Positions 21,293-49,633 of a DNA stretch of 64,000 bases are shown piece after piece. The first letter of the stretch is position 1; every line of letters begins with the position of its first letter. The stretch lies in assembly GCA_965649265.1 (NCBI GenBank), contig CBFGKC010000005.1:32001-96000 (forward strand), read 5' to 3'. The notes below the pieces were generated by a model, which saw only the letters and a program-made list of their open reading frames with translations, was not told the origin of the DNA and did no database searches. Both the position numbers and the translations under genes were made by a program. The stretch is from a candidate division WOR-3 bacterium (lineage in GTDB: Bacteria; Hydrothermota; Tepidihabitantia; B3-TA06).

Positions 21293-21330
21293 TCTGCCCT
21301 CCTTGGGGCGTGGAAGGTTTTCATGACCAG

Positions 21331-22038: not shown

Positions 22039-22140
22039 CAGCGCCAACCTTCTATCGTCCAGAAATTACACTCCTGAAGGGAGCGGGTGTTTGTTAATAG
22101 GACCCTGCCGAAAAGCCTTTTCATCCTGTCTCCGACTCCC

Positions 22141-30735: not shown

Positions 30736-32166
30736 CTACCTCACTATCACGATCTTCCGGGTGACGCCCACACTGCCCGATTCGAGCCGCGCGAAGTAGA
30801 CGCCTGCCGAAAATGCCGCGACCTTCACCTCGCCTTGCCTGCGGACGGCTAGACTTGAAACCATCCTGCCCGACGCGTCGTAGAGCTCGATGGTGCCTTG
30901 CTCGCCTTGGCTCAGGGAATATCGCAGGGTGATCTCCGAATTAATTGGCGAGGATATTTCGAGGTGGGGTGTTACGGGTGTTTCTGAGGAGGGTGTTTCT
31001 GAGGAGGGAGGCTCGGTGACACCTACGTTACCTAGCGAGTCGGTCTTGATGAGCCAGAGATCCATTTTTCCTGCGCCGTATGAGTCTGTTCCTCCCATGA
31101 CAATATAGCCGTTGTCCGGGGTAACCAGTACCCTATATCCGTAATCAAATCCACTTCCTCCAAAGATTCTATTGAAACGCTCTCCTCCAAAGTAACCACG
31201 TTCTGATAAAATAAGATCCGGATACTCATCCGTCCTGCATGAAACCCCGGTTACGATGTAAGCATTAGAACCGACACCGTTCTCAACGCAAAAGCCTTCT
31301 TGCTCTCCTTCTCCTCCCCACGCCGCTGTCCAATCATAATTTTCTAAATCAACAAAGTAAGTAGCTCCTAAGAAAATATCGGAAGGATCATCTGGATTTG
31401 GAGAACTCCACCCAACGCAGAGGTATCCGCCCGGCGACCATCTCTCCTGAATATAGTTTATATTACCTCCGGGGCTCTCATCCGTTGAGAAAACCTCACC
31501 TGAAGTGTCTATCCTTACGAAGCGGGTTCCCATTGTAAAAGACTGAACTAACAAAACGTATCCGTATACAAATTGGTGATTAATCTGGGCGCTGATTAGT
31601 AGATCATCCTCACTCTCACCGTAAGTCTTTGTCCATACTGTATCACCATCTCCTTCAATGCGCAGTATCCACACATCTGTACAACCGGCGCCCTCCGATT
31701 CTGTCTCGCCTAAAACCATATACCCCTCCGGCATCTCGAACACGAACTGACCACAATCAGACACACCAGGTAAACCATAACTACGTTTCCATACTGTGTC
31801 GCCAAGTGAATCGGCCTTCACTATCCACAGGTCTCCATCTAATGCCATTTCGCCAGCATCTCTATATCCTGTTATTATGTATCCACCATCCTTTGTTTGT
31901 TGAACATCTTCACCTACATCATTCATAGGTCCACCATACGTACGAGTCCACTGGGTATCACCTTGCTGGTTGACCTTCACCAGCCAGAGATCGTATGCAT
32001 TTGGAGACGTTGAGAAGGATTTTGTAGCACCGGTAATCACATACCCCGAGTCCGTTGTTTGCCGAATGCAACTTCCAAAATCGTCTGCTGTTTCCCCATA
32101 GGTCCGCATCCAGCCGGCAAAAAGGGAAATGAAAGAGACCAGGCTTGTAACAATCACTCGCTTCAC
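30736..32166 (-). CDS. Secreted beta-propeller-like repeat protein with T9SS/FlgD-Ig-like C-terminal domain
   Basis: Signal peptide; repeated W.RTYG...D.G..V.QT.DGGY units; C-terminal LYDASGR.V...AGVYF. Confidence 0.8.
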   Translation of the reverse strand: MKRVIVTSLVSFISLFAGWMRTYGETADDFGSCIRQTTDSGYVITGATKSFSTSPNAYDLWLVKVNQQGDTQWTRTYGGPMNDVGEDVQQTKDGGYIITGYRDAGEMALDGDLWIVKADSLGDTVWKRSYGLPGVSDCGQFVFEMPEGYMVLGETESEGAGCTDVWILRIEGDGDTVWTKTYGESEDDLLISAQINHQFVYGYVLLVQSFTMGTRFVRIDTSGEVFSTDESPGGNINYIQERWSPGGYLCVGWSSPNPDDPSDIFLGATYFVDLENYDWTAAWGGEGEQEGFCVENGVGSNAYIVTGVSCRTDEYPDLILSERGYFGGERFNRIFGGSGFDYGYRVLVTPDNGYIVMGGTDSYGAGKMDLWLIKTDSLGNVGVTEPPSSETPSSETPVTPHLEISSPINSEITLRYSLSQGEQGTIELYDASGRMVSSLAVRRQGEVKVAAFSAGVYFARLESGSVGVTRKIVIVR

Positions 32167-32371: not shown

Positions 32372-32399
32372 AACCTCCTGACCATGCCTTGCAACATCG

Positions 32400-32428
32400 T
32401 TGACACGAGTCCCGGCCGGAACTATAAT
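32400..32428 (+). promoter_or_regulatory. sigma70-type promoter
   Basis: TTGACA-N17-TATAAT. Confidence 0.75.
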
Positions 32429-32503
32429 CGGGGCCTGGTCGGAGAGGGCTCGCAGAGAGTCCGGATTGAGATTTTATTGACAAAATTACAAGGAGAGTTG
32501 GAG

Positions 32504-33871
32504 ATGAAGAAGTTCTTTAACTGGATCGATAAAACCTTCGTGAAGCCTGTGGAGGAATCAAAGATGCCCCTGGGCGCGTTCGTGCTACTTGCCGCCGCCT
32601 ACATACTCGCGCGCAACCTTTTCGAGGGCGCTTTCGAGTCCATGCACCTTCTGGGGCTCTCTACAATCACCCTTCTCGGAGTGGAGGAGATGTTTTTGCA
32701 CCTCATGTTCTCCTGGATGTATCTGTTCATGGTCATCATCGTGCTTCTGAGCTTTACCACCGGGCACGACATCCGCAAGATAACGAGGGTGCTCCTGACG
32801 TACTCCTTCATTATACTGATTCCCCCGTTCGTCGATTTCATCTTCATGCCCGGCGGCTTCCGGCTGGCCTATCCCAACGACATCTCGGTGACTTTCAAGA
32901 TCCTCTACGTTCTCGCAAGGCCCTGGATAATCTTCGACCCGCGGATGGTCTACGAGTATTCGCAGAACCTTCCCTACGGAGCCTCGCCCGGGATGGGCAT
33001 AGAGATAATACTCGGCATCATACTCGTGTTCATCTACACGTGGATGCGGTCCCCGACCACAAAGCGCAGGATAATAGCGCTCGTGCTGATACCGCTGGTG
33101 CTGTTCGGAACCATTCTCCTGACTGGCGGCGCGCAGGTGCTCATGGCCTCTTTCCCCGGCGACGCTCACTTAAGCAAAACCGTTTACTTCTCGGGAGGAC
33201 TGATAACTTCGCCCACGAGAAAGTACGCGCTCATTGTGATTCTTCCCTTCATAGTCGTGCTGTTCGTCGGCCTCTTGCTTTACAACAAGGAAAAAGCCCG
33301 CATGCTAATCCGCTCGATTGACCCGTTCCAGGCCGTTCTCGGAGCCGTTGCCGCGTGCGCCGGATTCCTGTTCGCATGGCTCGGACTCAAGGACGTGCTG
33401 ACCGGCGTCCCTCGCAACCCCTTCGATTACATCGCCCTTCTTGGACTCGCCGTGATGGGCGCTACATCAACCTCGACGAGGCTTTTCCTGTCATCAACGT
33501 GGGACGCGGCCAAGCCCCAGGACGAGCGCAAGACTTTCGCGAGAGCCGCAGGCGGAATGCTCATTCTCACAGTAGCTCTCGCCTGGTGCCTGGGTTACTC
33601 GAACCTCTTTATTCTCGTCGTCTCGCTGGTCTTCGGCCTCATCAACGCCATGCCGCCCCTGCGGCTCGCGCGGTGGAGCGTACCCTCCTCCCTGGCCAAC
33701 TCGTTCGCCGTACTCATGCTCGTCTACTGCGGATATTCGCTTTTCGCGACCGAGCGCACTTTCACCGTATTCCCATGGTGGCTGTCGCTGGCCGTTTTCG
33801 CACCTTTGCTCTTGCTCTTTCTGGCGCGTGAATTCATACTAAGGCGTCAGGTTCCACACAAGGCGGCCTGA
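32504..33871 (+). CDS. Polytopic membrane protein with degenerate UbiA-like C-terminal half
   Basis: Many TM segments; PPLRL motif; no NDxxDxxxD; AAGGAG RBS before ATG 32504. Confidence 0.55.
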   Translation: MKKFFNWIDKTFVKPVEESKMPLGAFVLLAAAYILARNLFEGAFESMHLLGLSTITLLGVEEMFLHLMFSWMYLFMVIIVLLSFTTGHDIRKITRVLLTYSFIILIPPFVDFIFMPGGFRLAYPNDISVTFKILYVLARPWIIFDPRMVYEYSQNLPYGASPGMGIEIILGIILVFIYTWMRSPTTKRRIIALVLIPLVLFGTILLTGGAQVLMASFPGDAHLSKTVYFSGGLITSPTRKYALIVILPFIVVLFVGLLLYNKEKARMLIRSIDPFQAVLGAVAACAGFLFAWLGLKDVLTGVPRNPFDYIALLGLAVMGATSTSTRLFLSSTWDAAKPQDERKTFARAAGGMLILTVALAWCLGYSNLFILVVSLVFGLINAMPPLRLARWSVPSSLANSFAVLMLVYCGYSLFATERTFTVFPWWLSLAVFAPLLLLFLAREFILRRQVPHKAA

Positions 33872-33873
33872 AG

Positions 33874-35052
33874 ATGAACAAGGAACAACGCATAAGCCCG
33901 GCACTCCTCGCAGTGGGCATAGCCGCGGCCCTGGCTCTGGCCGTTCTGCCGCCCCTTCTTTTAAGGCTTTCCCTGCTCTGGTTCATCACCCCCGTCGTCG
34001 CGCTGGTGGCACTTGCGGGCGTATTCTTCAAACGCGCCTGGCTGCTTACGCTCTCGGCAAGTCTTCTCTTGATAGTAATAGTACTCGCCTTCACGAAAGC
34101 GTATCCGACAATGACTCAGAATGAGAAAAACAAACTTTACTCCACCGGGCAGATTGTCAAAGGAGACGTTTACTACGTGAGAGCCGATTACCCCAGGGCG
34201 CTCGAGGCTTACAGGCAAAGCGAAACTCAATGGATCATCGATCCCTGGATCGAGTATCAGCGCGCAAGATGTTACAATTACACAGGGCAGAACCAGACGG
34301 CCTTCGAGCTGTACTTGTACCTGGCGAAGTATCCTTTCGACATACCGCCCGAGATGCTCGAAACAGATTTGGCTCTAGCAGCTCTTAAGGCTTACCTTTT
34401 CGAAGACGGCGAGGCGCTTTTTACACAAGCCATAGACCAGAACTTCAGACCCGGGTACTCCTTTTTCCAGCTCGGGGTATTTAACAGGATGAACGCGCAG
34501 GGCGACAAGGCGGAGGAGATGTTCACTAAGGCACACAGGCTCGGATATGAGCGCTCGGATTGCTCTTCGCTTCTCGGCGAGATTGCCGAGGATCGCAAAA
34601 ACTACGCCCTTGCCGAGGAACTGTACCGCCGCGGCCTGCACGAGAGCTTCGAGAATCTGGCCCTTTACGCCAAGCTGGGCAGCTTACTGCACCGACTGGG
34701 GCGCACCGATGAGGCGCTTAAGATTCTTCTGGACGGGTTCAACATAGCCACTTACGTTCCTTTCAACCCGAGAGCGACCGCGATGATACTCAACAACCTG
34801 GGCTACATATACGGCGACCAGGGCAAATCGGGCCAGGCCATTATGGCCTTCAAACAAGCCATCCACAGCGACCCTACCTTTTATGATTCGTACGATAACC
34901 TGGCATACGTCTACATGCAAACAGGCAGGAACGCCGAGGCTCTTCAAATTCTCCAGACGGCCCTCAAGATGGATCCGAATCACGAAACCGCCAGGCAGTT
35001 GATAAATCAGATAACCGGCGGTTACACCGCATCGCCCGATACCGTAAAGTAA
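33874..35052 (+). CDS. Membrane-anchored tetratricopeptide repeat protein
   Basis: Three N-terminal TM helices, multiple TPR units (NNLG..Y...G....A...F..A...DP). Confidence 0.85.
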   Translation: MNKEQRISPALLAVGIAAALALAVLPPLLLRLSLLWFITPVVALVALAGVFFKRAWLLTLSASLLLIVIVLAFTKAYPTMTQNEKNKLYSTGQIVKGDVYYVRADYPRALEAYRQSETQWIIDPWIEYQRARCYNYTGQNQTAFELYLYLAKYPFDIPPEMLETDLALAALKAYLFEDGEALFTQAIDQNFRPGYSFFQLGVFNRMNAQGDKAEEMFTKAHRLGYERSDCSSLLGEIAEDRKNYALAEELYRRGLHESFENLALYAKLGSLLHRLGRTDEALKILLDGFNIATYVPFNPRATAMILNNLGYIYGDQGKSGQAIMAFKQAIHSDPTFYDSYDNLAYVYMQTGRNAEALQILQTALKMDPNHETARQLINQITGGYTASPDTVK

Positions 35053-35138: not shown

Positions 35139-36563
35139 TTAAAGGTCAGCCGCCCTGTTGGGCAGGCTGCCCGGAGCTTCCTCCGGGAAATCATGCGTCT
35201 CCGAGGATCCCCCGGGGAGGTTTTCGTAAATGATATTTTTGCGGCAGTCGGAAAAGATGGTGACGACGGGGCTCCTTACGACGTCGCGCCAGATGAAATC
35301 GAGTCCCATGGAAGAAAGCCTCTCCCGGATCAATCTCGAGAATTGCTTCACGTAAATATCGAGAGGCTGGTTGAGTATTTTTATGGTCTCGCGCAGCAGA
35401 TAGTGCATCTGGGCCGATGAAATTAGAGGGTGATTCCACACGAGGTACTTGGCGTCGTAGTGACGCCAGGTCCGGTCAAAGACACCGTAGCGGGAATCCA
35501 GTTCGTCCCACAGGGGCGTTCCGGGAAACGGGGTTATCACGTTGACCTGATGCGCGTCAAACCCGGCTCCCTTGAGCCGCATCACGTCTTCCATGCTTTG
35601 GCCGGCGTCCATGTGTTCGTACCCGAGCATATAGTAGGCCATGCGGTACATGCCCTTCTTCGCGGAGGTTAGCCTGGTGAATTCGTAAACGTCGTCGACC
35701 CTCTGTTTTTTGTCGACGGCATCCATCGCGTTCTGGCTCATGGTCTCGACGCCGACCAGTGGAAAGCGAAGCCCCCGGTCATACCAGGAATCCAGGTTTC
35801 TCATGAATATCCCCACGCGACTTTGTGCCCACCACCGCATTCTCGATCGGGCAAGCATCTCCGAAACCCTTTCGGCATGCGCGGGATTGAATCCGAAAAG
35901 CTCGTCCAGCACAAAAACGTCCGTTATGCCCCTCTTGCGGTAGGAGGCAAGGACGCGTTCGATGCTTTCGAGATTCACCGGGAAGTGCTTGTGGTCGAAC
36001 GTAGGCGTCTGGCAAAACGTGCATTTGAAAGGACACCCGTGCTGCGTGTAAAGAACCCCGACGTTCATGTATGGTATTTGAAGCCCCGTCATGTAGAACG
36101 AAAGAGGCCAGGTCATGAAAGGGTGCTCGACGTCTCTCACTCGGCGTCCGAACACCTGCGCTACATCGTCCTCCGACGCCCCCATGAACACGCGATCCAC
36201 GCGCGAGGGAATGGAGGGATCAATGGAACCGTAGTTGCCCGCCCAAAGCTCCTTGACTCCTTGCCTCCTCGCCTCCTCGATCATCTCGAGCACCTCCCCT
36301 ATCTCGTTCTGGTAAAAGCTGAAACCTACCACGTCCCAGCCTTCTTTGAGCTTTTCGACGTATTCGTGCCACATGGGGTACTCGAGTATTTCCAGTTCCT
36401 GCACGTTCTGTTTGAGGAATCGAAGGCCGGGCGAGGCGGTACGGAGCATTGATACCCTCGGGTTAAGGTAGACGTTCTGACCCACGTAATCGAGGTAATC
36501 ACCGGGCCACCTGCGGTATACCGTACATAATAGCACACGGGGATTAGAGGACAAGGCCTTCAC
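35139..36563 (-). CDS. Radical SAM protein with B12-binding-like N-terminal domain (paralog 5)
   Basis: GCPFKCTFC; WDVVGFSF...WAGNYG; TPFPGTP; GTG 36563 chosen by alignment to paralogs. Confidence 0.88.
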   Translation of the reverse strand: MKALSSNPRVLLCTVYRRWPGDYLDYVGQNVYLNPRVSMLRTASPGLRFLKQNVQELEILEYPMWHEYVEKLKEGWDVVGFSFYQNEIGEVLEMIEEARRQGVKELWAGNYGSIDPSIPSRVDRVFMGASEDDVAQVFGRRVRDVEHPFMTWPLSFYMTGLQIPYMNVGVLYTQHGCPFKCTFCQTPTFDHKHFPVNLESIERVLASYRKRGITDVFVLDELFGFNPAHAERVSEMLARSRMRWWAQSRVGIFMRNLDSWYDRGLRFPLVGVETMSQNAMDAVDKKQRVDDVYEFTRLTSAKKGMYRMAYYMLGYEHMDAGQSMEDVMRLKGAGFDAHQVNVITPFPGTPLWDELDSRYGVFDRTWRHYDAKYLVWNHPLISSAQMHYLLRETIKILNQPLDIYVKQFSRLIRERLSSMGLDFIWRDVVRSPVVTIFSDCRKNIIYENLPGGSSETHDFPEEAPGSLPNRAADL

Positions 36564-36862
36564 GAAGGCACCTTTACGCATGCAAAAAAAAGGCACAAAA
36601 GCGCCCTTGAGATTCCAAATACCGGACCACTATCCATACCGGCATAATAATATAGCACGAATAATAGATGTCAAGTGAAATCGACAAACCCATATGAAGG
36701 GAGGGGGAGGGGTTGTGGAAACTGACACTTTCAGATACTCGTGTTATTCAAAATAAAGAGAGCCTTGACTTAAGACCGGTCCCGGACCCTTAAAAGAAAA
36801 AGCCGGTGACCTTCTTTCTGCAACACTCGGCGTGAGGTTATATCTTATTTTACGCAGCGGAC

Positions 36863-38215
36863 TCAATTCCTGGGCAGGAATACCTGTTTGCGGTCGTTGA
36901 TTAAGAGCGAGGAGATGGGACCCCTTACGAGATCACGCCAGACAAATCCCAGCCCCTGTCTTTCAAGACGCACCATCGCCAGGCGCAGGAAGTTCTTGAG
37001 GTAAATATCGGTAGATCTGTTAAGGTAATGGATAACGGTGGCGCGCAAATAATGCATTTGAACGGGTGACATCAGAGGGTGGTTCCACACCAGGTGTTTG
37101 AGGTCGAAGTTGCGATACTTCCGTTCAAAGATGCCGTACCTGGCGTCGTATTCGTCCCACAGCGGGGTTTTCGGAAACGGGGTAAGCACCGTTATCGTGT
37201 GCGCGTCGAACCCGGCTCGCTTGAGAAATACCGCGCTTTCTATCGTATCTTCAACCCTCATGTGGGGATAGCCGATCATGGTGTACACCATCCGGTACAT
37301 GTCTTTCTTTTCCCTGGTGCGCCGGGCGTATTCGAGAATTTGCTCGACGCTTTGTTTCTTGTCCAGATCGTCCAGCGACTTCTGATTCATGGACTCAAGG
37401 CCTATAAGTGGGAATCTCAACCCGCGCTCGTACCAGACATCAAGATGACGCATGAACATGGTTGCGCGTGACTGGGCCCACCAGCGAAACTTGTACTTGG
37501 CGAAGAGCCTTGTGAGCTTGTCTGTGTAGCCGGCAAACACACCAAAGAGCTCATCCTGAGGAAACACGTCGGTTATACCCAATTTTTTATAGTAGCGAAG
37601 CACCCTTTCCACGCTTTCAAAATCTATGGTGGACATCCGCGTGTTGAAGGAAGGGGTCTGGCAGAACGTGCACTTGTAGGGGCACCCGCGTTCGGTAAAG
37701 AGAACACCGAGCGTAAGATGGCGGATATTTCCCGGCAGGAAGCTCAAAGGCATGAACAGGGGAGGGTGCTTGACCGATCCTTCGGGCACGCGATATCCGA
37801 ACGCCTGAGCCACGTGATCCTCTCCCGGGCCGATGAAGATGCGGTCGGCTATTTTGGGAATTTTATAATCGAGAGCGCCGTAATTGCCGGCCCAGATCTC
37901 CTTCACTCCATGCCTGCGAGCCTCGTCGGCCATTAGCTCTATCTCGGCGATTTCGTTCTGGTGAAAACTGAACCCGACCACGTCCCAGCCTTCCTTGAGT
38001 TTTTTTACGTAATCGTGCCACATTGGATAGTCCAGTATCTCGACCTCGGGCACGTTCTGCTTGATAAAATGCAGACCGAAACCCATGCGCCGCGGTACGG
38101 TGACCCTCGGAAGATCGTAGGTGGTCTCGCCGACTACGTCCCAGTAATCGGAAGGAAATCTCCTGAAGCACGTGGTCAAAAGCACTCTAGGATTGCTGGA
38201 CAGCACCTTCGTCAC
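36863..38215 (-). CDS. Radical SAM protein with B12-binding-like N-terminal domain (paralog 4)
   Basis: GCPYKCTFC; same conserved blocks as neighbours. Confidence 0.88.
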   Translation of the reverse strand: MTKVLSSNPRVLLTTCFRRFPSDYWDVVGETTYDLPRVTVPRRMGFGLHFIKQNVPEVEILDYPMWHDYVKKLKEGWDVVGFSFHQNEIAEIELMADEARRHGVKEIWAGNYGALDYKIPKIADRIFIGPGEDHVAQAFGYRVPEGSVKHPPLFMPLSFLPGNIRHLTLGVLFTERGCPYKCTFCQTPSFNTRMSTIDFESVERVLRYYKKLGITDVFPQDELFGVFAGYTDKLTRLFAKYKFRWWAQSRATMFMRHLDVWYERGLRFPLIGLESMNQKSLDDLDKKQSVEQILEYARRTREKKDMYRMVYTMIGYPHMRVEDTIESAVFLKRAGFDAHTITVLTPFPKTPLWDEYDARYGIFERKYRNFDLKHLVWNHPLMSPVQMHYLRATVIHYLNRSTDIYLKNFLRLAMVRLERQGLGFVWRDLVRGPISSLLINDRKQVFLPRN

Positions 38216-38386
38216 AGAAAGCTCCGCCGTTGAATACTTCCGTTGTGACCCAACCCGGGAATCTTACGAACAAATTTCACACTTAATGATATCTTTTTCA
38301 TCCCTCGAGTCAATCGGTAAAAAAAAGTCATATCCAGCCCGGAATTCTTGAGGTTACATGCGGAGACAAGATAAACACTTCACCTG

Positions 38387-39781
38387 TTAAACCTCTTTTT
38401 GGCAAAGATTTGTAAAATAAACCTGTTTCCGGTCGTCAATCCTTGTCGAATCCAACGGCCCCTTGACGAGATCGCGCCAGATGAAATAAGGCCCGTCACT
38501 GCGAAGCCTGTTCAAGACCAGTCTCGTAAACCCCCTGCCATATATGTCAAGAGGCTTGTTGAGTGTCCCTATCACGGTTTTCAGGAGGTACTTCATTTCA
38601 CCGGGCAGAATGTGGGGGTGGTTCCAAACGAGGTGTTTGGCGTCGTAATGCGGGTAAGCGCTGTCAAATATTCCATAGCGAGTCGATAGTTCATCCCAGA
38701 GAAGCGTCTTCGGGAAAGGGGTGATGACGTTTACCTGGTGAGCGTCGAATCCCGCTCGCTTAAGCCTTAAAGCGTCCGCAATCGTCTCTTCGGCATTCAG
38801 ATTATCGTAGCCTATCATGTAAAACGCCATGCGATACATGCCCGGTTTTTCGCGTGTGCGGCGCGAGAATTCGTACACCTGTTCTATTCGCTGGCGTTTA
38901 TCTATGCCGTCCATCGCGCTCTGGCTCATCGTTTCCACGCCTATCACCGGAAACCGCAGTCCTCGCTCGTACCACGTATCGAGGTTGCGCATGAACAGGG
39001 CCGCGCGCGACTGGGCCCACCAGCGAATCTTGTGCTTTGCGAAAAGGAGGGTCAGCTTGTCGGCAAACTTTTGGTCTATGCCGAAAAGCTCATCAAGCAG
39101 CATTATGTCGTTTATGCCCAGTTTTTTGTAGTAGGCCACAACCCTTTCGACGCTCTCGAAATTCACCGTATACATGTTGTTTTCGTACACAGGGGTCTGG
39201 CAAAACGTGCACTTGTAAGGGCATCCCCGCTGGGTATACATAACGCCGAGGGTAAGGTGGCGTATTCTGCCCGGCACGAAGTTGATGTGCATCATGCCCA
39301 CTGGATGCTCTACCGCTTCGTTCGTGACGCGTTTTCCGAACACTCGCGCAACCGGGTCCTCCCCCGCCCCCGTAAAAACCCTGTCCACCAGGGCCGGTAC
39401 ATGCTCGTCCAGGGCACCGTGCCCGCCCGCCCATATCTCCTTTATCCCCTGGCGTCTTGCCTCGGCAATCATGCGCTTGACGTGCTCGATTTCACGTTGA
39501 AAGAAACTGAATCCCACAACATCCCAGCCTTCCTTGAGTTTTTGGACGTACTCGTGCCACAAGGGGAACTCTAGTATCTCGACCTCGGGGACGTTTTGCT
39601 TGATGTAGCGCAGACCAAGGTTCATTCTGCGTTCAATTGTTACCCTGGGAAGGAAATATACGTTCTCGCGAATATACTCCCAGTAGTCTGTGTCGTGGGT
39701 TCTGTACGGTGTACAAAGGAGCACCTTCGGGTTCGTCGAAAGCGCTTTCTCCTTTCCTTCACTCGAACTTCTCATTTTCAT
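38387..39781 (-). CDS. Radical SAM protein with B12-binding-like N-terminal domain (paralog 3)
   Basis: GCPYKCTFC; same conserved blocks. Confidence 0.88.
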   Translation of the reverse strand: MKMRSSSEGKEKALSTNPKVLLCTPYRTHDTDYWEYIRENVYFLPRVTIERRMNLGLRYIKQNVPEVEILEFPLWHEYVQKLKEGWDVVGFSFFQREIEHVKRMIAEARRQGIKEIWAGGHGALDEHVPALVDRVFTGAGEDPVARVFGKRVTNEAVEHPVGMMHINFVPGRIRHLTLGVMYTQRGCPYKCTFCQTPVYENNMYTVNFESVERVVAYYKKLGINDIMLLDELFGIDQKFADKLTLLFAKHKIRWWAQSRAALFMRNLDTWYERGLRFPVIGVETMSQSAMDGIDKRQRIEQVYEFSRRTREKPGMYRMAFYMIGYDNLNAEETIADALRLKRAGFDAHQVNVITPFPKTLLWDELSTRYGIFDSAYPHYDAKHLVWNHPHILPGEMKYLLKTVIGTLNKPLDIYGRGFTRLVLNRLRSDGPYFIWRDLVKGPLDSTRIDDRKQVYFTNLCQKEV

Positions 39782-39822
39782 CTCACTCTAAACACCGTTA
39801 CCTTTCACAAAGGGTTTATACT

Positions 39823-39870
39823 ATGTTACAGTTTATTCGGCTGTTGTCAAGTTTACTAGTAAATTTGACA
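39823..39870 (-). promoter_or_regulatory. Promoter with overlapping 26-bp palindrome
   Basis: TTGACA-N16-TAACAT; TGTCAAGTTTACTAGTAAATTTGACA at 39845-39870. Confidence 0.55.
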
Positions 39871-39938
39871 TTGTGGATACAAAAAAGAGCTGTCTGTAAA
39901 GTGCAGACACGAATCCAGGATGTTCTTTGTGGAAAATT

Positions 39939-41273
39939 TCAAATATGGACTTGCTTGCGAGGGTCCAGAAGCATTGCGGCAACGGGTGATTTTAATACGT
40001 CCTGCCACAGAAACCGGAATCCGTCCGACGCGAAGCGCTGCCTTACGAGGCGGGAAAACGAGCGGCCGTAGATATCGAGGGGCTTGTTCAGGAACGCGAT
40101 CGCCGTGTTCCGCAGGCGGTGCATGTTTTGAGCGGAGATGTGGGGGTGTTTCCAGACCAGATACTTGGCGTCATAGTGCCGGTAGGTGCGGTCGATTATC
40201 CCGTAGCGCGAGGAAAGCTCGTCCCACAAGGGTGTCGCCGGGAAAGGAGTGATCACGTTTATCTGGTGCGCGTCAAAGCCCGCCGCCTTCAGCCGGACCA
40301 CGTCCTCAAACGTCTGGTGGGCGTCCATGTGTTCGTACCCTATCATGTAGTATGCCATACGGTACATGCCGCTGCGTTCGCCGGTTCGTCTGATGAATTC
40401 CTCAACTTCCTCGAGCTTTTGTTTCTTGTCTATATTGTTCAGAGCGGTCTGGCTCATGGTTTCAACGCCGACAAGGGGAAACCTGAGTCCGCGCTCGTAC
40501 CAGGAGTCGAGGTGGTTAAGAAAAAGCGACATGCGCGACTGGGCCCACCACCGCATTCCGTACCTGGCGAGTATCTCCGTGATCTCCTCAGCGGACTTGG
40601 GCTTGTATCCGAAAAGTTCGTCGAGAATGAGGACGTCCGTGATCCCTATCTTCTTGTAGTATCTGATTACCCGTTCGATGCTCTCGATGCTGACGGATTG
40701 ATGGTTGGTATCATATACAGGCGTCTGGCAAAACGTGCATTTGAAAGGGCACCCGTGCTGCGTGTACAAAAGACCGATCTGGAGATATGGAATGTCGCCG
40801 GGGATGAAGGTAATGGGCCAGAACATGACGGGGTGCCTGACATCGGTGACACGGCGACCGAATGCCTGCGCCACCGCGTCCTCGGAAACCCCGTGGAACA
40901 CGCGGTCAACCGCTTTCGGGATGACAGGGTTAAGGCTGCCGTACCCCCCCGCCCAGAGTTCCTTCACGCCCTGCCTGCGGGCCTCTTCGGCCATTTTCGA
41001 CACTTCGCCTATCTCGTTCTCGAAGAACGAGAATCCGACCACGTCCCATCCCTCTTTCAGCTTTTCCGCATATTCGCGCCAGGACGGGTATTCGAGTATC
41101 TCGATCTCGGGAACGTTCTGCTTCAGAAAACGCAGCCCGGGCGAAGCCTTGCGCTTGAGGGCCACCCTGGGCGTGAGGTAGACGTTCTCGCCGATGTAAT
41201 CGAGATAATCGTCCCTGAACCGCCTGTAGACGGTTGAGAGAAGAATCTTCGGATTAGTGGAGAGAGTCTTCAC
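39939..41273 (-). CDS. Radical SAM protein with B12-binding-like N-terminal domain (paralog 2)
   Basis: GCPFKCTFC; GTGA-coupled to paralog 1. Confidence 0.88.
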   Translation of the reverse strand: MKTLSTNPKILLSTVYRRFRDDYLDYIGENVYLTPRVALKRKASPGLRFLKQNVPEIEILEYPSWREYAEKLKEGWDVVGFSFFENEIGEVSKMAEEARRQGVKELWAGGYGSLNPVIPKAVDRVFHGVSEDAVAQAFGRRVTDVRHPVMFWPITFIPGDIPYLQIGLLYTQHGCPFKCTFCQTPVYDTNHQSVSIESIERVIRYYKKIGITDVLILDELFGYKPKSAEEITEILARYGMRWWAQSRMSLFLNHLDSWYERGLRFPLVGVETMSQTALNNIDKKQKLEEVEEFIRRTGERSGMYRMAYYMIGYEHMDAHQTFEDVVRLKAAGFDAHQINVITPFPATPLWDELSSRYGIIDRTYRHYDAKYLVWKHPHISAQNMHRLRNTAIAFLNKPLDIYGRSFSRLVRQRFASDGFRFLWQDVLKSPVAAMLLDPRKQVHI

Positions 41274-42619
41274 CCCTCCTCTCCACCGAAGAAAAATTGC
41301 TTGCGTTCGTTGAACAATAGGGAGTGAAGGACCGGTCTGGCAAGGTCATCCCACAGGAAACCGAAGCCCTTCTGGTTTATTCTCTTCTGAGCCATCCTTA
41401 TAACGCCTGCGCCGTAATTGCGCATGGGAACGTTAAGCCGGGCCATCCCGACGCGCTTGAGAAAATCCATTGCCCCGGGGTCGATGGAAGGGTGATTCCA
41501 GACGAGGAAACGCGCATCGTAGCGGTGGTAATCCTTCTCGAAGATGCCGTAGCGCTCCTTGATTTCGAACCACTGGGGCGTCTTGGGATACGGGGTAAGC
41601 ACCGTGAGCTGGTGAGCGTCAAAACCAATAGCTGCAAGTGTTTCGTAGTCTGAAATAACGGATTCCACAGTATCGTTCTCGTATCCTATCATGTAAAAAG
41701 CCATTGTGAAGATTTTCCTCTCCCTGGTGGCGCCCCTGAATTCCTTCATTACCTCGAGATTCGTTCTCTTGCCTATCCTCTTGAGCGTCTCGTCGTTCAC
41801 GCTCTCAACCCCGAAACCGACGTTGACCATGCCGCGGTCGGTCCAGGAATCTATGTGCCTGAGCGTCAGGTCGGCCCTTGACTGCACCCACCAGTGAAAC
41901 CCGTAGCGCGCAAGCATGTCGAGTACCTGTTCGGAGTGAGAGGGAAAGGTGTAAAAAGTCTCGTCTAGTATGAAGAGTTCGTTTATTCCGTGCTTTCGGT
42001 AGTAATGCAGAACCTCTTCGATGGATTCGAGGGGAAGCCTTGCCGGGTGCGGGGAATGAACCGGCGTCTGGCAAAAGGTGCACCTGTAAGGACAGCCGCG
42101 CTGCGTGAAAAGGAGGCCGATTTTCTTATATGGGACCGAAGGGGGTACAACAACCCTGACCGGAATCACTATAGGTGGATGCTTGATTCTTTCGGTTTTA
42201 CGACCGAAGCACTCCTCGAGCAGGCTCTCCTCGACGTAACCGTACCAGATGCGGTCGGCGAAGGCCTCCGCTTCCTCGGACAGGCCGCCGTATCCGCCCG
42301 CCCATATCTCCTTCACGCCCTGCCTGCGGGCCTCGGCGACCATTTCGAGTATCTCGGCAAGGTCGTGTTGAAAGAAGGTGAATCCCACTACGTCCCAGCC
42401 TTCCTTGAGCTTTCGGACGTATTCGTGCCACAGGGGGAACTCCATTATGTGGATGCCGGGAACGTTCTGCTTGAGAAATCTCAGAGACGTTGAGACCGTT
42501 CTTATGAATCCGAAACGGGGCGTGCGGTAGAAATTTGCGCCGACGGCGTCGTAGTAATCGTTCGGGGCGCGGCGGTAAGCGGTTGATATAAGAATCCTGG
42601 GCGAAGAACCTCTACTCAT
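41270..42619 (-). CDS. Radical SAM protein with B12-binding-like N-terminal domain (paralog 1)
   Basis: GCPYRCTFC; appears the most divergent member (LDETF, WWVQSR, FGVES). Confidence 0.88.
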   Translation of the reverse strand: MSRGSSPRILISTAYRRAPNDYYDAVGANFYRTPRFGFIRTVSTSLRFLKQNVPGIHIMEFPLWHEYVRKLKEGWDVVGFTFFQHDLAEILEMVAEARRQGVKEIWAGGYGGLSEEAEAFADRIWYGYVEESLLEECFGRKTERIKHPPIVIPVRVVVPPSVPYKKIGLLFTQRGCPYRCTFCQTPVHSPHPARLPLESIEEVLHYYRKHGINELFILDETFYTFPSHSEQVLDMLARYGFHWWVQSRADLTLRHIDSWTDRGMVNVGFGVESVNDETLKRIGKRTNLEVMKEFRGATRERKIFTMAFYMIGYENDTVESVISDYETLAAIGFDAHQLTVLTPYPKTPQWFEIKERYGIFEKDYHRYDARFLVWNHPSIDPGAMDFLKRVGMARLNVPMRNYGAGVIRMAQKRINQKGFGFLWDDLARPVLHSLLFNERKQFFFGGEEG

Positions 42620-42689
42620 CAAGGGCCCTCATCCCATTTTCATCGGCCGGTTCTTCCTTAATCTTCCGCACCTCTAGACCGGGCTCCAT

Positions 42690-44456
42690 TCACTTGAGAC
42701 TTGCCAGGGGAATAAGCAGCCATGAGGTGTAGTCGGCGACGGCGAGATGGCTCTCGGATGCTGCAACCGCGAGCGCCTTCCCCGGTGTGTCTATGAAGTT
42801 ACCGAGAACCGGAGCCGTTGGGTCCTGGACTCCGACCTCGAGAACCCCCCTTTCGCCGGAAGCAATGTAGAGGGTCGTGCCGGTGAGAGCAAGGCCGTAC
42901 GGCCGCACACCTATGGGAGTGAAGGAAAGCTGCCTCGGCGCCACAGGATTGGACACGTCGAGAATCATGAGCAAGCCCATGGAGTCGGCGACGAACAGCC
43001 TTTGACCATCAAGCAGAAGCGCGACAGGACTGACTGCACCTGGATAAATGGAAATTTCTTCAGGGGTTTTACCCTCCTCCCTCAAGGCAATAATCCTCAA
43101 ACCGGAATCGGGATCGGCCACGTAGGCAATGGAGTCGGTGACGGCAACGTCGAGTGCCTTGATTCCTTCTACCTTCCCCTTGTCCTTCAAAGGTCCACAT
43201 GGACATATCCAGAGAGTCCGCAGCCCCTTGCCTCCCTCTGCGACCACAATCAGTTCGCCCGTGAGGCCGAAACGCAGCGGCTCACCGGGCTGGAATAGTT
43301 CGTATTTCCTTTCCGCACCGGGGAAAGTCTTGATGGAGTAAATTGATACGCCGCGTTCTCCGTCCGCTATATACAGGTTAGTTCCTGAAAGAAGAACTCC
43401 AAGTGCATTTTCGGGTCTCGGATCGGCGTAACCGGTTACGAGAGAGTCCGCATCTTGTTTAACGATGCTCACCCCTCCCCCTCCCTGGGCTATGGCCCAG
43501 AAATCGCCGCTCCTGGAGGTATGCAAAACGGGGGACGAGCGTGAAAAACGCTTGGAGACTGCAAATGCCGAAGGCTTGGAACCTTCGAGAAGAGCTATGC
43601 CCTTCCCGCCCAGCGCGAGGTAAACACCGTTTCTTGCGGGCACGATATCGGAAATGTACCCCTCACGAAAACTCAACGGTGTATCTAAACGTTTGCCGCG
43701 AAAATCAAAGACGGCATAACCCTGGCTCCCCAGAGCCGCATAAAGGGTTTTACCGGAGCAGGTAAGCGAAACTGCCGTGGCCCCTGCGTCGAATCTCAGT
43801 TCCTCCATCGGATGAGCAGGGTCCTTAACGGAAAAAACGACTATCGAAGATTCTCCAAGCCCGACAAACAACTTTCCTGAACCTGCGGCGAGGGTCTTTG
43901 CTCCAGCCAGATTGATCTCGCCTGCAAGGACCGGGGTATTCGTGCAGTCAAAAATCTTGATTCCGTTTCTCGTTAAAGCGTAGAGAAAGTCTCCTGAAAA
44001 AACGATATCCTCCGCGGCTGCGCCGAGGTTCTCGGTTGAAAGCGGCTTTGAAGGATCGCTCTGGGAGCTGATCACAAGAATCCCAGAATTGGTGGCCGCC
44101 GCCAGATGCTTCCCGGATGCGGCAAGAGCCGAAACCTGGCCGCCGGGAGAAAAGAAAGCAGTCTCCCTGAGGCTGTCCTTTACGCTGAATTCCCTTACAT
44201 TTTCTCCCGAAGCCAGCCACACCCGTTCGCCCGATGCGACGATAAGGCTACTGAATTCAGGGGTAGGGATATTGAGGGCACTCGAAAGGCCGTCATCCAA
44301 TTGCGCTATTCCGTAGCCTGTAGCCGCGTAAAGTTTGCCCTTTACCTGGACCAGCGCGGAATAATCGCCGGATATGTAGAAGCTTTTTGTATCGGCGGGA
44401 AGATAACCCGCATTTCCCGCCGAGAATAAAAATGCCGATATTAAGACTGGTATCAT
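42690..44456 (-). CDS. Secreted LVIVD-repeat beta-propeller protein
   Basis: Signal peptide; repeated YVADxxxGL.I.DVSNP..P units; CPCGP motif. Confidence 0.75.
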   Translation of the reverse strand: MIPVLISAFLFSAGNAGYLPADTKSFYISGDYSALVQVKGKLYAATGYGIAQLDDGLSSALNIPTPEFSSLIVASGERVWLASGENVREFSVKDSLRETAFFSPGGQVSALAASGKHLAAATNSGILVISSQSDPSKPLSTENLGAAAEDIVFSGDFLYALTRNGIKIFDCTNTPVLAGEINLAGAKTLAAGSGKLFVGLGESSIVVFSVKDPAHPMEELRFDAGATAVSLTCSGKTLYAALGSQGYAVFDFRGKRLDTPLSFREGYISDIVPARNGVYLALGGKGIALLEGSKPSAFAVSKRFSRSSPVLHTSRSGDFWAIAQGGGGVSIVKQDADSLVTGYADPRPENALGVLLSGTNLYIADGERGVSIYSIKTFPGAERKYELFQPGEPLRFGLTGELIVVAEGGKGLRTLWICPCGPLKDKGKVEGIKALDVAVTDSIAYVADPDSGLRIIALREEGKTPEEISIYPGAVSPVALLLDGQRLFVADSMGLLMILDVSNPVAPRQLSFTPIGVRPYGLALTGTTLYIASGERGVLEVGVQDPTAPVLGNFIDTPGKALAVAASESHLAVADYTSWLLIPLASLK

Positions 44457-46250: not shown

Positions 46251-47009
46251 TCAGCGGTTCTGCAAAATCTGCTGCCGGAGATCAAACTCGCGAGGCATTC
46301 TGATCGGCAACGTTTGATCGATCAGTTCCCGGTTTGTTTCTTTTTTGTACCCGAGATCCTTTACCCTTACGACCATTTTTGCGGCATTGGGCATCATCAG
46401 GCCCGCGTTAAGTTCAATGCGCGTCGGTATGGGATTTTTCTTATCTGTTGTAAAATCATAGAACCTGACTTGAGTGGCGTTGGTTTCTATGCCTGTGGGC
46501 TTCTTTGTTGAGCTGTCAAAAACGTAGCTTAAGCCGGATACCGTTTTGACGATTGTCGAAGTGGCGTCGTTGTAGAATGTGTCAATATCTTTAGGGTCCG
46601 CCGGAATCAGGTTAAAAACCATCAGTATATCCTTGGGCGTAAAAGGCATGCTGTTAGCCCAGCCTGTGCCCTGATTCAGAAACGTCACAAGCTTTACCCT
46701 GCGCATGAAATCATAAATCCATACCGTGTCCGCGTCTCCCCTGAAAAATCCCGCCGGCGCTCCCCCGGGGAGTCGTACGTCGAATATATATTTTCCACTT
46801 TCCCAGTAGAAAAAGAAAGGCATTTGAAGCAGAACCTTGTCCGAACTATCCAACGCCTCGACAAAACCGCTAACCGAAAGAATTTTTGGAGTTTGTCTTA
46901 TCTCCATGAACTTAAGCTCTTCAGGATATGTGGTTTTTGCCTTTGCAGAAACGATAGAAAATAGTACGCCAAAGGCCACTATCAAGTTATAAGCTAAATT
47001 GGACCTCAT
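46251..47009 (-). CDS. Secreted hypothetical protein, possibly LolA/LolB-like fold
   Basis: Signal peptide, AGGAGG RBS, beta-rich pattern (D.VWIYDF, P.RIEL). Confidence 0.5.
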   Translation of the reverse strand: MRSNLAYNLIVAFGVLFSIVSAKAKTTYPEELKFMEIRQTPKILSVSGFVEALDSSDKVLLQMPFFFYWESGKYIFDVRLPGGAPAGFFRGDADTVWIYDFMRRVKLVTFLNQGTGWANSMPFTPKDILMVFNLIPADPKDIDTFYNDATSTIVKTVSGLSYVFDSSTKKPTGIETNATQVRFYDFTTDKKNPIPTRIELNAGLMMPNAAKMVVRVKDLGYKKETNRELIDQTLPIRMPREFDLRQQILQNR

Positions 47010-47052: not shown

Positions 47053-47080
47053 ATTATAGAACTGCGCGGCCGAATGTCAA
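47053..47080 (-). promoter_or_regulatory. sigma70-type promoter of the LVIVD/radical SAM operon
   Basis: TTGACA-N16-TATAAT. Confidence 0.75.
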
Positions 47081-47106: not shown

Positions 47107-47472
47107 TCAATAGAAGTCGTCTATTCCTGATATCTTGAGGTTCGGCTTTGTTTTGGAGAGTTTCTTAAGGGTATCTATCACAACCCAGGTTTCTCCCCAC
47201 GGCAAGGTTGTATCGATGCGAACCATAAGCTCCACATTTTGTGAGATTTTTGAGTAATGCGACCAGAGATCGTCTACATCCATTTTCTTCCGATTCAGGT
47301 AAAGACCCGAAGTCGTGACATTCAGGGTATCGATTTGACCGGAAAAAGGGTGTCCCGTTTTCAGAATCCTTGTGACTACGATGAGGCCTAAAAGCACCGC
47401 TATCGCGATAATCACCGGACCTCTGAGCAAGCTGAGGCGGGGAAGAGGGTTTCTTCGTTCGGGTAAACTCAT
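47107..47472 (-). CDS. ExbD/TolR-like single-pass membrane protein
   Basis: One TM helix, G.YLN, VRID...PWG....VID.LK; promoter TTGACC-N16-TATAAT 6 nt upstream of ATG. Confidence 0.55.
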   Translation of the reverse strand: MSLPERRNPLPRLSLLRGPVIIAIAVLLGLIVVTRILKTGHPFSGQIDTLNVTTSGLYLNRKKMDVDDLWSHYSKISQNVELMVRIDTTLPWGETWVVIDTLKKLSKTKPNLKISGIDDFY

Positions 47473-48480: not shown

Positions 48481-49176
48481 TTATCTTCCCAGTTTCACTA
48501 GCCAGCGCTCTAAAGGGTCCATGTTCTTTGAGTGTTCCAGGCAGAGGTCGAGGAGCCTGGGTGAGGTGACGGTCTTTACCGGGATTGGGGGCGACTTGGC
48601 ATAGAGGGTGTTGTGGCGCAGAAGCTCGGCCCTGGGATGATCGGGTGCGTATCCTGCAGGAACGCGTTTGTAATGCACGTCACCGGTTACATAGTCGCCC
48701 GATTTGCGGACTGCTGCCAGGGCTTTTTCGAGTTCGCGCCCACGCCTGTCGTCGGCGACCGCATCGCGAAAATCCTGAAGTTCTTCCTTGGAAAACTCGT
48801 ACTTCCCCGCATACATGAAGGCAGAGTTCGACTCGAGGTGGAAATAGAAACCGGGATTCGACATCTTTTTGCCCGGACCCTCCCAGAAGAAGATGCCCAT
48901 GTGGGTTTTATATGGCGACTTATCGGCGCTGAAGCGGACATCCCTGTGGATTCTGAAAAGCGAGCCCGAGCCGTTGGTTCTCGTGCTGTAGACGATATCC
49001 TTGGAGACTTCTTTCTGCAGCAGGGCTCCGAATCCGGTGATGAATGCGAGTGCGGGTGCCACAAGCGATTCCTCGTAGACACTCCTGTTGGCTTCAAACC
49101 AGCCCTTTTCGTTATTTCTGGTGAGGTCGGCGAGAAAATCCAGGCCCTTTTCAGGGAATCCTTTAAATTGGTCCAT
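48481..49176 (-). CDS. DUF2461 family protein
   Basis: FL..L..NN.K.WF..NR, FRIHRDVRFS.DKSPYK, K.VP.GY..DHP..ELLR; AGGAGG RBS. Confidence 0.88.
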   Translation of the reverse strand: MDQFKGFPEKGLDFLADLTRNNEKGWFEANRSVYEESLVAPALAFITGFGALLQKEVSKDIVYSTRTNGSGSLFRIHRDVRFSADKSPYKTHMGIFFWEGPGKKMSNPGFYFHLESNSAFMYAGKYEFSKEELQDFRDAVADDRRGRELEKALAAVRKSGDYVTGDVHYKRVPAGYAPDHPRAELLRHNTLYAKSPPIPVKTVTSPRLLDLCLEHSKNMDPLERWLVKLGR

Positions 49177-49186
49177 GGCTCCTCCT

Positions 49187-49633
49187 TTATCGATTTTTCC
49201 CGAACACTCTCCTGCATCTGGAGCACGCTTCAAGATACCAGCTGCCTTTTGCCCCGCATTCGCATGTCCAGCGTTTCTTTTGTCTTGTGAGCCATTCTGT
49301 TTCGCCAAGTTCCTTGAGAAGTTCGAGGTTTCCGATGACTTCAGAGTGATGCACAAGCCCGTCTTCGGAGAACTTTTTGATGCGGGAACAGGGGAACTCG
49401 GCGCAAAGTCCGCAGTGCTCGAGCGAGTGAGCGCGGGCGCACTCGCGTATCCCGCACTCATCACACAAACTTTCGTCGGCCCTGCAGCCGGGGCAGAACT
49501 GGAGCGGTGCATCGGCATACTCTCGGAGCTTACCGGGCAAGTGGGTAAGATGACGCCGGTCTTGCTCGTCGAAGGCAACCTTGAAGCTGCACGCGCCGCA
49601 GAAAAGCCCGCAGTAGCCTGTCAGGTCGTTCAT
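49187..49633 (-). CDS. DUF3795 Cys-rich protein
   Basis: CGLFCGAC, CPGC, C.IRECA, HCGLC.EFPC, extra C-terminal CEC...CSRC. Confidence 0.8.
   Translation of the reverse strand: MNDLTGYCGLFCGACSFKVAFDEQDRRHLTHLPGKLREYADAPLQFCPGCRADESLCDECGIRECARAHSLEHCGLCAEFPCSRIKKFSEDGLVHHSEVIGNLELLKELGETEWLTRQKKRWTCECGAKGSWYLEACSRCRRVFGKNR

Follow-up and report, generated by a model that had tools for sequence, protein, structure and literature searches.

The 64,000-nt stretch of DNA analyzed here (hereafter, the window), from a candidate division WOR-3 bacterium (contig CBFGKC010000005.1 of assembly GCA_965649265.1, positions 32,001 to 96,000 of the forward strand), carries a tandem array of five paralogous radical S-adenosylmethionine (SAM) genes. 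The array is real, far beyond anything that chance would produce, and its products are probably soluble, catalytically intact radical SAM enzymes, four of them of one type (A) and one of another (B). The explanation favored here, to which we give roughly even chances, is that the array supplies a set of tailoring enzymes that would perform related radical chemistry on a single class of substrate, with the A and B types responsible for different steps. The clade to which the five copies belong is uncharacterized but the enzyme type is known, and the finding amounts to a gap in annotation, not to a novel type of system.

The five-gene array

The copies are named rS5, rS4, rS3, rS2, and rS1 in order of transcription, from upstream to downstream:

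41270-42622, minus strand: rS5, B-type, 450 amino acids (aa), PF04055 at 73.7 bits, fourth gene of its operon
39939-41273, minus strand: rS4, A-type, 444 aa, GTG start
38387-39781, minus strand: rS3, A-type, 464 aa
36863-38215, minus strand: rS2, A-type, 450 aa
35139-36596, minus strand: rS1, A-type, 485 aa when read from the GTG at 36596

All five are intact open reading frames (ORFs) on the minus strand, at 35139-42622, and can be aligned end to end, with pairwise identities of 43–67% in protein and 53–67% in DNA. The other four copies are 55, 57, 67, and 43% identical to rS1, the value of 67% being that of rS4. A DNA repeat finder recovered the five copies at a spacing of 1.35–1.65 kb, and a tblastn search of the 64-kb window with rS4 returned exactly five copies (E 0 to 6e-131), with the next match at E 0.63; across the same 64 kb, this search detected no fragmentary copies. 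A preliminary description of this DNA, made from the sequence alone, had reported five same-strand, intact, paralogous ORFs, and this is borne out by ORF positions, alignment, repeat finder, and tblastn alike. The shared blocks that it listed are also found in the alignment, namely KLKEGWDVVGF, EARRxG(V/I)KExWAG, GCP(F/Y)(K/R)CTFCQTP, WWxQSR, GFDAH, and LVWxHP, and so is KQNVP, except that rS1 reads KQNVQ at that point. rS1 probably begins at the ATG at 36581 and then has 480 aa, as this fits the alignment better than the GTG does.

Enzyme class and domain architecture

Membership of the radical SAM superfamily is clear from two observations. Every one of the five copies exceeds the gathering cut-off of PF04055 (Radical_SAM), with 38.8–73.7 bits versus 29.5, and this model was matched in 60 of the 60 family members scanned, and the GCP(F/Y)(K/R)CTFC motif, with its CxxxCxxC cysteines, is present in every copy. 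Radical_SAM is the sole domain that Pfam finds in the five proteins, which are hydrophilic, with a grand average of hydropathy (GRAVY) of about -0.35.

The remainder of the architecture comes from modeling and profile comparison. An AlphaFold2 model of rS4, built from a 60-sequence alignment, reached a predicted local distance difference test (pLDDT) score of 91.8 and a predicted template modeling (pTM) score of 0.90, and has a beta-alpha N-domain at residues 10-138, followed by a barrel and then by a helical tail. When this model was compared with the PDB using Foldseek, AprD4 came first (E 6.9e-19, TMq 0.64), followed by CysS, QCMT/MgmA (9ccb), TsrM, and TokK (E 6e-16 to 4e-15, TMq 0.56–0.64), with MiaB/RimO and OxsB lower down. 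Searching PDB sequences with the family profile gave AprD4 at E 4e-18, 9ccb at 1.3e-13, and TokK at 1.6e-8, although these matches were restricted to the core (rS4 residues ~169-387).

The N-domain was reached by hhalign, where the A-type alignment matched 17 generic class-B enzymes with a probability of 100% (E 3.7e-49) over 357 columns that span rS4 residues 44-407, N-domain included. All 17 of these comparison enzymes are positive for PF02310, the B12-binding domain, and the match pairs EGWDVVGFSF with D-x-V-G-I-S, WAGGYG with GG, and DRVFxGxxED with D-x-V-x-GEAE. Because of this alignment to PF02310-positive enzymes, the N-domain is a B12-binding-domain homolog that has diverged, and the class-B layout (a Rossmann-like N-domain, a partial TIM barrel, and a short helical tail) is supported for the five copies by the model and the profiles. 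PF04055, the rS4 model, Foldseek, and hhalign thus agree with the preliminary description of the five as radical SAM proteins of class-B layout.

Only the three CxxxCxxC cysteines are invariant among 60 family members, and rS4 has no cysteines beyond these three in total, so that an auxiliary cluster is absent. Tes and Mss carry ligands for an auxiliary [4Fe-4S] cluster in addition to the radical SAM cluster, according to the parts of PMC13459092 available to us. An identity with Mss/Tes, considered since WOR-3 has been reported to have Mss, was consequently ruled out for want of auxiliary-cluster cysteines, the two being set apart by description.

A compact clade within a very large superfamily

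A profile of the five copies was searched against 1.84 billion cluster representatives, and matched 26,832 of them at E<=1e-3, 7,892 at 1e-10, and 87 at 1e-30, many being fragments. A word-indexed search with rS4 gave 346 matches, and organism names were attached to 13 of the best 120: seven are from candidate division WOR-3, two from Candidatus Stahlbacteria, two from Zixibacteria, one from TA06, and one is simply a "bacterium". Stahlbacteria is itself a name for a WOR-3 lineage, as stated in the accessible text of PMC12542636. By these searches, the five copies belong to a compact, unnamed clade inside a huge superfamily.

Existing annotation says little about this clade. The matches listed carry only the name "radical SAM protein" or the generic JGI label YgiQ/UPF0313, and the homolog P0011 falls in the ESM Atlas only into generic "B12-binding radical SAM" clusters. 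Best NCBIfam scores were 60–71 bits (HpnJ, PhpK, or BchE) relative to cut-offs of 481–650, and none of the five copies, the 23 deeper members, or the five outgroups reached an NCBIfam cut-off. Models for BchE, PhpK, ApyD, AprD4, MgmA (MJ_0865), and MJ_1487, as well as those for TsrM, KedN5, BzaD, and the ladderane-lipid radical SAM enzyme, all gave 71 bits or less, as compared with cut-offs of 251–750; BchE was the best match of rS5, at 71 bits versus 481. These scores uphold the earlier view that the copies match no characterized family. The outcomes that the preliminary description had named as refuting its interpretation were likewise absent, since the copies do not cluster with a characterized enzyme, and their homologs are often multi-copy and apparently on one contig.

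The clade is also sharply set off from its surroundings. Scanning contigs with GCPxxCxFC found at least 80 loci, and among the matches listed all were generic class-B enzymes, 20–29% identical; on the ORFs of those loci, the family profile scored no more than 131 bits, versus 400–900 for true members. DUF4070 occurs in 8 of 17 generic neighbors of the COG1032 type and is absent from all 60 clade members scanned. A description of the family was not found in the full-text literature, supplements (which may list WOR-3 homologs) lying outside the search. In a survey of WOR-3 genomes (PMC12542636), the terms cobalamin, B12, and radical SAM do not occur at all.

A and B types and the history of the copies

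Two trees were computed. The first, made with FastTree, has 148 rows, comprising the five window copies, 115 of the 117 non-window rS4 matches (the other two, shorter than 400 aa, being excluded), 23 deeper representatives, and five outgroups, and the second is a quick IQ-TREE analysis of a hand-chosen subset of 59 rows. Both split the core family into an A clade with rS1-4 (100%) and a B clade with rS5 (99%), by the Shimodaira–Hasegawa-like approximate likelihood ratio test (SH-aLRT), the B clade holding rS5 amounting to 19 rows.

Within the A clade, the four window copies have different neighbors. rS1 lies within the same 12-row subclade as rS4 (99% support), rS2 is grouped with the WOR-3 proteins P0011, P0013, and P0017 (84%), and rS3 is sister (83%) to a large clade in which the sequences with an organism name come from TA06, Stahlbacteria, Zixibacteria, and one WOR-3 metagenome-assembled genome (MAG). 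The closest homologs among the matches listed are 82% identical to rS4, 86% to rS5, and 97% to rS2 (P0020). Constraining rS1-4 to a single clade cost 213 log-likelihood units and was rejected by the approximately unbiased (AU) test (p-AU 0.0004), this constraint group having been chosen after the tree was viewed. Third-codon identity between copies is 38–47%, which likewise shows the duplications to be old and under purifying selection. A recent local amplification is ruled out by the AU test together with the saturated third-codon positions, and the retention of the copies, as previously proposed, holds for old lineages.

Co-location in relatives was approached through the identical size in bp of each cluster's longest contig, the contigs themselves being unseen. 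By this measure, at least five of 27 B-type clusters pair with an A-type cluster, with equal longest contigs of 4,553, 11,991, 30,542, 52,534, and 53,287 bp. Equal longest contigs also join two B-type clusters each at 12,776 and 4,711 bp, and two A-type clusters each at 80,615, 3,075, and 4,933 bp. Since many of the other contigs are shorter than 8 kb, these counts are lower bounds. An A-type and B-type pair thus appears to recur in relatives, and the data suggest that multi-copy arrays are usual in the clade. The five-copy expansion of the preliminary description is therefore in need of revision: multiple copies appear to be common in relatives, but the number five is lineage-specific, and the unit that seems to recur is the A-type and B-type pair.

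Transcription of the array

The array is divided between one apparent operon, whose order is the gene for a 252-aa protein, the two LVIVD genes (LVIVD2, then LVIVD1), rS5, and rS4, and three downstream genes with promoter-like sites of their own. The candidate signals are as follows:

47053-47080, minus strand: promoter-like TTGACA-16-TATAAT at the operon head, consensus match of 12/12
39891-39909, minus strand: hairpin followed by a T-run, 30 nt past the rS4 stop, candidate operon terminator
39823-39850, minus strand: promoter-like TTGACA-16-TAACAT upstream of rS3, 10/12, consensus match only
38286-38313, minus strand: promoter-like TTGACT-16-TATCAT upstream of rS2, 10/12, consensus match only
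36647-36674, minus strand: promoter-like TTGACA-16-TATTAT upstream of rS1, 11/12, consensus match only

Gaps of 13–67 nt separate the gene for the 252-aa protein, the two LVIVD genes, and rS5, and the stop of rS5 shares four nucleotides (GTGA) with the GTG start of rS4; a GGAGAGGAGGGG stretch stands immediately 5′ of this overlap. The combination of overlap and upstream stretch suggests that translation of rS5 and rS4 is coupled. That these two copies stand at the end of an operon with secreted proteins, as the preliminary description had it, is consistent with the short gaps, the overlap, and the N-terminally hydrophobic products encoded upstream. Each of the gaps before rS3, rS2, and rS1 likewise contains one consensus match of 10–11/12, in line with the separate -35/-10 promoters that had been assigned to these copies.

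In the 13.8 kb scanned, 15 promoter-like sites were found, relative to 8.9 ± 2.8 in shuffles, and the six sites with at least 10/12 matches were without exception intergenic, each upstream of a minus-strand ORF. Terminator-like sites were not enriched (10, versus 16.2 ± 4.2 in shuffles), so the candidate terminator at 39891-39909 is only suggestive. When the upstream regions of rS3, rS2, and rS1 were aligned in a search for a common operator, nothing common was seen beyond the promoter hexamers. A hairpin with an eight-T run lies at 36581-36608 (minus strand), between the rS1 promoter-like site and the likely ATG, and falls inside the longer, GTG-initiated rS1 ORF; it could be a leader or attenuator, or have arisen by chance.

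Likeness and divergence of the active sites

Across the barrel strands and the loops that follow them, rS1-4 are identical at 50 of 89 positions, as compared with 42 of 127 elsewhere in the core; when rS5 is included, the corresponding counts are 35/89 and 29/127. rS2 is the most deviant A-type copy, while rS5 departs from the others with DETFY for DELFG, HWWVQSR for RWWAQSR, and GMVNVGFGVESVND for GLRFPLVGVETMSQ. The least conserved stretches (residues 151-165, 226-240, 271-300, and 316-330) are mainly helices in the model, with 151-165 modeled as strands. Because divergence is thus mostly found in outer helices, part of the difference between the conserved blocks may be neutral. Judged by these alignments, the active sites are similar but not identical.

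This similarity raises the question of whether the copies are simply redundant isozymes of one reaction, kept for dosage or for condition-specific expression. The separate promoter-like sites of three copies would fit such an arrangement, as would the high similarity of the barrel-lining blocks in rS1, rS3, and rS4. However, the copies diverged long ago, and other organisms have retained each of the lineages separately. Of the 89 positions in barrel strands and loops, 39 vary among rS1-4 (and more so in rS5), and A with B appears to be a recurring combination. We therefore consider plain redundancy to be quite unlikely.

Proposed mechanism and cofactor

In the favored explanation of the array as a set of tailoring enzymes, each copy would reductively cleave SAM to a 5′-deoxyadenosyl radical, which would then abstract a hydrogen atom from an unactivated C-H bond. 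The conserved N-domain would hold a common cofactor (cobalamin or an equivalent) or a common partner. rS5, the B-type enzyme, would be coupled to the A-type rS4, and the lineage has kept three further old A copies, rS3, rS2, and rS1, that may differ in the position modified, in substrate preference, or in the timing of expression. As to the substrate, a small hydrophobic metabolite or lipid would be favored over a protein, and if cobalamin is indeed bound, then cyclization, rearrangement, or desaturation would be at least as favored as methylation.

Conservation within the family is strongest in the N-domain, where the mean column entropy is 1.38 (core, 1.60; tail, 2.19), and this argues for a retained ligand or partner site. 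One position in it bears on the type of chemistry. In radical methylases the residue beneath the cobalt is hydrophobic (in TokK it is Trp76), and the lower-axial position is polar in TsrM (Arg69) and OxsB (water/Asn186), as described in those parts of PMC12931638 that were available. In a HMMER alignment to the generic profile, the Trp of TokK, the Trp of CysS, and the Ile of QCMT share one ungapped column, and hhalign carries the TokK Trp76 column to Asn86 of rS4. Among A-type members, this column is Asn in 21 of 36 (Ser in 3, Tyr in 3, Ile in 2, His in 2, Arg in 1, and others in 4), and among B-type members it is His in 17 of 26 (Asn in 4, Tyr in 3, Arg in 1, and Gln in 1). In the window, rS1, rS2, and rS4 have Asn, rS3 has Arg, and rS5 has His. 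As a lead only, a polar residue in this column would point away from a classical radical methylase.

A number of observations weigh against the tailoring-set explanation and its cofactor. PF02310 was detected in none of the five copies at E<=0.01; at E<=1 no more than 14 of the 60 family members matched it, the best with E 9.8e-6, and it is precomputed for just two of the best 120 of the 346 homologs; the earlier term "B12-domain-type" accordingly stands for the fold and the profile–profile homology, but not for the PF02310 model. The nearest solved structure, AprD4, is cobalamin-independent, and neither a cobalamin riboswitch nor any other Rfam family was found in the 64-kb window at gathering thresholds. 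The lower-axial column is a transitive alignment with a weak TokK leg (13.6 bits, i-Evalue 0.17), and the proposed division of labor derives wholly from sequence divergence, which is perhaps partly neutral. The promoters of rS3, rS2, and rS1 are consensus matches as opposed to proof of expression, and the recurrence of A with B rests on equal longest-contig sizes. In the surroundings, Pfam and NCBIfam show no lipid, cobalamin, sugar, or precursor-peptide gene adjoining the array, and no substrate, partner, or pathway gene for it was identified in the window.

PF02310 misses all copies and the closest structure is cobalamin-free; the cobalamin dependence proposed in the preliminary description would follow from the architecture, and has been somewhat weakened by the analysis. 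It is conceivable that the enzymes do without cobalamin and retain only a remnant B12-type domain, and that, as a set of isozymes for related substrates, they act on sugars or similarly small, polar metabolites by dehydration, elimination, or group transfer. AprD4 and ArsL offer a precedent, as both belong to the B12 radical SAM network yet bind no cobalamin, again according to the available portion of PMC12931638. The top rank of AprD4 by sequence and by fold, the failure to detect PF02310 in the five copies, and the polar, variable residues of the lower-axial-aligned column would all be in keeping with this possibility. On the other hand, the N-domain is the best conserved region and aligns with a probability of 100% to PF02310-positive enzymes with its DxVGxS and GG blocks included, the AprD4 model in NCBIfam scores only 23–50 bits versus 500, and no AprD3-like reductase or sugar pathway gene adjoins the array. 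On balance, cobalamin-independent enzymes of this kind are unlikely.

Comparison with known systems

AprD4 (PDB 6FD2), the 1,2-diol dehydratase of apramycin biosynthesis, shares with the five copies a three-part layout and a Rossmann-like N-domain, and is the best PDB match of the clade, by profile over rS4 169-387 and by fold over ~485 columns. It differs in having only 17% identity, in the low score of its NCBIfam model given above, and in sitting in an aminoglycoside cluster, nothing similar being found near the array. TokK, CysS, TsrM, QCMT/MgmA, and OxsB, class I B12-dependent radical SAM enzymes of solved structure, also have the domain order and fold of the copies (Foldseek E 6e-16 to 7e-11, TMq 0.55–0.64), but are 12–16% identical with a sequence match in the radical SAM core only, and the column occupied by Trp76 in TokK and by Trp in CysS is Asn, His, or Arg in the five copies.

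The lipid-tailoring enzymes GrsA/GrsB, Gmm/Cgm/Pgm, Ted, and HpnP/HpnR/HpnJ resemble the array in another respect, in that several class-B paralogs per genome act at different positions or steps on an inert hydrocarbon. As described in the accessible text of PMC13459092 and bioRxiv 10.1101/2025.10.20.683597, they form paralog sets for ring formation (GrsA/B), methylation (Gmm/Cgm/Pgm), and desaturation (Ted), together with HpnP/R/J. The search criteria in these same texts require at least 495–500 aa for the archaeal lipid enzymes, versus 444–480 aa here, this being a comparison by description; NCBIfam models for Grs, Gmm, or Ted were not among the matches of the five copies.

It is conceivable, as the preliminary description suggested, that the array acts on membrane lipids as a bacterial analog of GrsA/GrsB, Gmm/Cgm/Pgm, Ted, or HpnP/HpnR, by introducing methyls, rings, double bonds, or cross-links at specific positions of fatty-acyl, ether, or membrane-spanning lipids. 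Paralogous B12-type radical SAM sets with distinct regiospecificity are usual in the tailoring of archaeal glycerol dialkyl glycerol tetraethers (GDGTs) and of hopanoids, and a polar lower-axial column would suit cyclase- or rearrangement-type chemistry. Homologs of Mss and Hbs have moreover been reported in WOR-3 MAGs in the available part of a preprint (bioRxiv 10.1101/2023.10.20.563219), although WOR-3 is not named in the main text, as available, of the published version (PMC11214058). HpnJ is the top sub-threshold NCBIfam match for three of the five copies, but its scores of 56–68 bits are far from the cut-off of 577.6, as are those of HpnR (41–52 versus 650) and of the ladderane-lipid model (26–50 versus 360). 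In addition, the window lacks a lipid gene by Pfam and NCBIfam, so that the array is without the lipid gene context of these systems, and the proteins are hydrophilic. The precedent of paralog sets makes a lipid role attractive, but in this bacterium it amounts to speculation, and we regard it as rather unlikely.

Genomic context and the LVIVD proteins

The window is chromosomal, as indicated by the presence of recA, alaS, gyrB, fusA, and glmS. Directly upstream of rS5 are two paralogs with LVIVD repeats (PF08309):

42690-44456, minus strand: LVIVD-repeat protein of 588 aa
44470-46230, minus strand: LVIVD-repeat protein of 586 aa

The two are 27% identical and have hydrophobic N-termini. An AlphaFold2 model of an LVIVD protein is a generic tandem seven-bladed beta-propeller, for which no informative PDB neighbor was found. 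A W-x-C-P-C-G-P-L-K block is invariant in nine of nine aligned LVIVD proteins in spite of identities as low as 27%, and occupies residues 416-424 in the protein of 588 aa, within an interstrand loop. We take its C-G-P-L-K portion to resemble the C-x-P-x-R modification motif of sulfatases, with K replacing R. The block is the sole hint of a protein substrate.

Such a substrate would imply a different role for the array, in which the copies modify LVIVD proteins before export (e.g., at W-x-C-P-C-G-P-L-K) or act on an unrecognized ribosomal peptide. The placement of rS5 and rS4 in one apparent operon with both LVIVD paralogs would speak for it, along with the unchanged block and the existence of protein-modifying class-B enzymes, QCMT/MgmA (9ccb) being the second-best PDB sequence match. 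Close homologs of the LVIVD proteins number only seven (44–68% identical), and two of these have longest contigs of 52,534 and 53,287 bp, sizes equal to those of A-type and B-type clusters. The link nevertheless appears to be confined to the nearest relatives and is not general, because the radical SAM clade has hundreds of members (346 and 261 matches) as compared with the seven LVIVD homologs; whether the LVIVD genes are part of the same functional unit as the radical SAM copies is uncertain. Against a protein or peptide substrate, rS3, rS2, and rS1 lie outside the LVIVD operon, the three intergenic gaps of the array contain nothing peptide-like among their small ORFs, no RiPP (ribosomally synthesized and post-translationally modified peptide) recognition element or leader peptidase was found nearby by Pfam or NCBIfam, and the MgmA model gave 20–33 bits versus 360 in the four copies that it matched (rS3 lowest, rS2 highest). 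Protein modification is thus judged to be very unlikely.

The 252-aa protein at the head of the operon (46251-47009, minus strand) has a signal-peptide-like N-terminus, the 12/12 TTGACA-16-TATAAT site standing before its gene, and a 121-aa protein (47107-47472, minus strand) has one N-terminal membrane helix and an 11/12 promoter-like site before its gene; neither has a match in Pfam or NCBIfam, even at E<=1. On the downstream side of the array, and convergent with it, 32384-35052 (plus strand) encodes a 495-aa polytopic membrane protein without a family and, after 3 nt, a 392-aa membrane-anchored tetratricopeptide repeat (TPR) protein. The product of 30736-32166 (minus strand), 476 aa long, is a secreted repeat protein whose C-terminal domain is a sorting signal for type IX secretion (PF18962, TIGR04183); together with the chromosomal genes named above, it fits a WOR-3-like organism related to the Fibrobacteres–Chlorobi–Bacteroidetes (FCB) group. 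The region at 16706-22047 (minus strand), where a 1528-aa bacterial alpha-2-macroglobulin is found beside DUF1175/NlpC-P60, transpeptidase-only penicillin-binding, and SpoIID-like proteins, looks like an envelope-protection cluster. Finally, a 365-aa ORF at 48481-49578 (minus strand) matches DUF2461 at residues 146-359 only; its N-terminal ~140 residues are rich in Ser, Pro, and Ala, and its true start is therefore probably further downstream.

Implications

Radical SAM enzymes of the class-B type act on unactivated carbons and catalyze reactions that are among the most demanding in biology. To our knowledge, most of the tens of thousands of class-B-type sequence clusters are without a known function. 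The clade described here is compact, sharply set off, housed in poorly known phyla, and usually multi-copy, all of which makes it a tractable target. Expressed together, its A-type and B-type enzymes could bring to light novel chemistry, or a modified lipid or metabolite not previously seen in WOR-3-like bacteria. A bolder proposal, which we hold to be decidedly unlikely, is that the pair and its extra A copies constitute an undescribed anaerobic pathway of candidate phyla related to the FCB group, one that would place rings, double bonds, methyl groups, or cross-links in combination on a single envelope lipid (for instance one of the membrane-spanning lipids predicted for WOR-3) as a bacterial counterpart of the archaeal Grs/Gmm/Ted enzymes, with the B-type His, aligned to the residue beneath the cobalt in TokK, perhaps representing a mode of cofactor binding new to radical SAM enzymes. 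If the substrate does prove to be a membrane-spanning lipid, then the array would bear on the origin of the modified bacterial tetraether lipids that are used as climate proxies.

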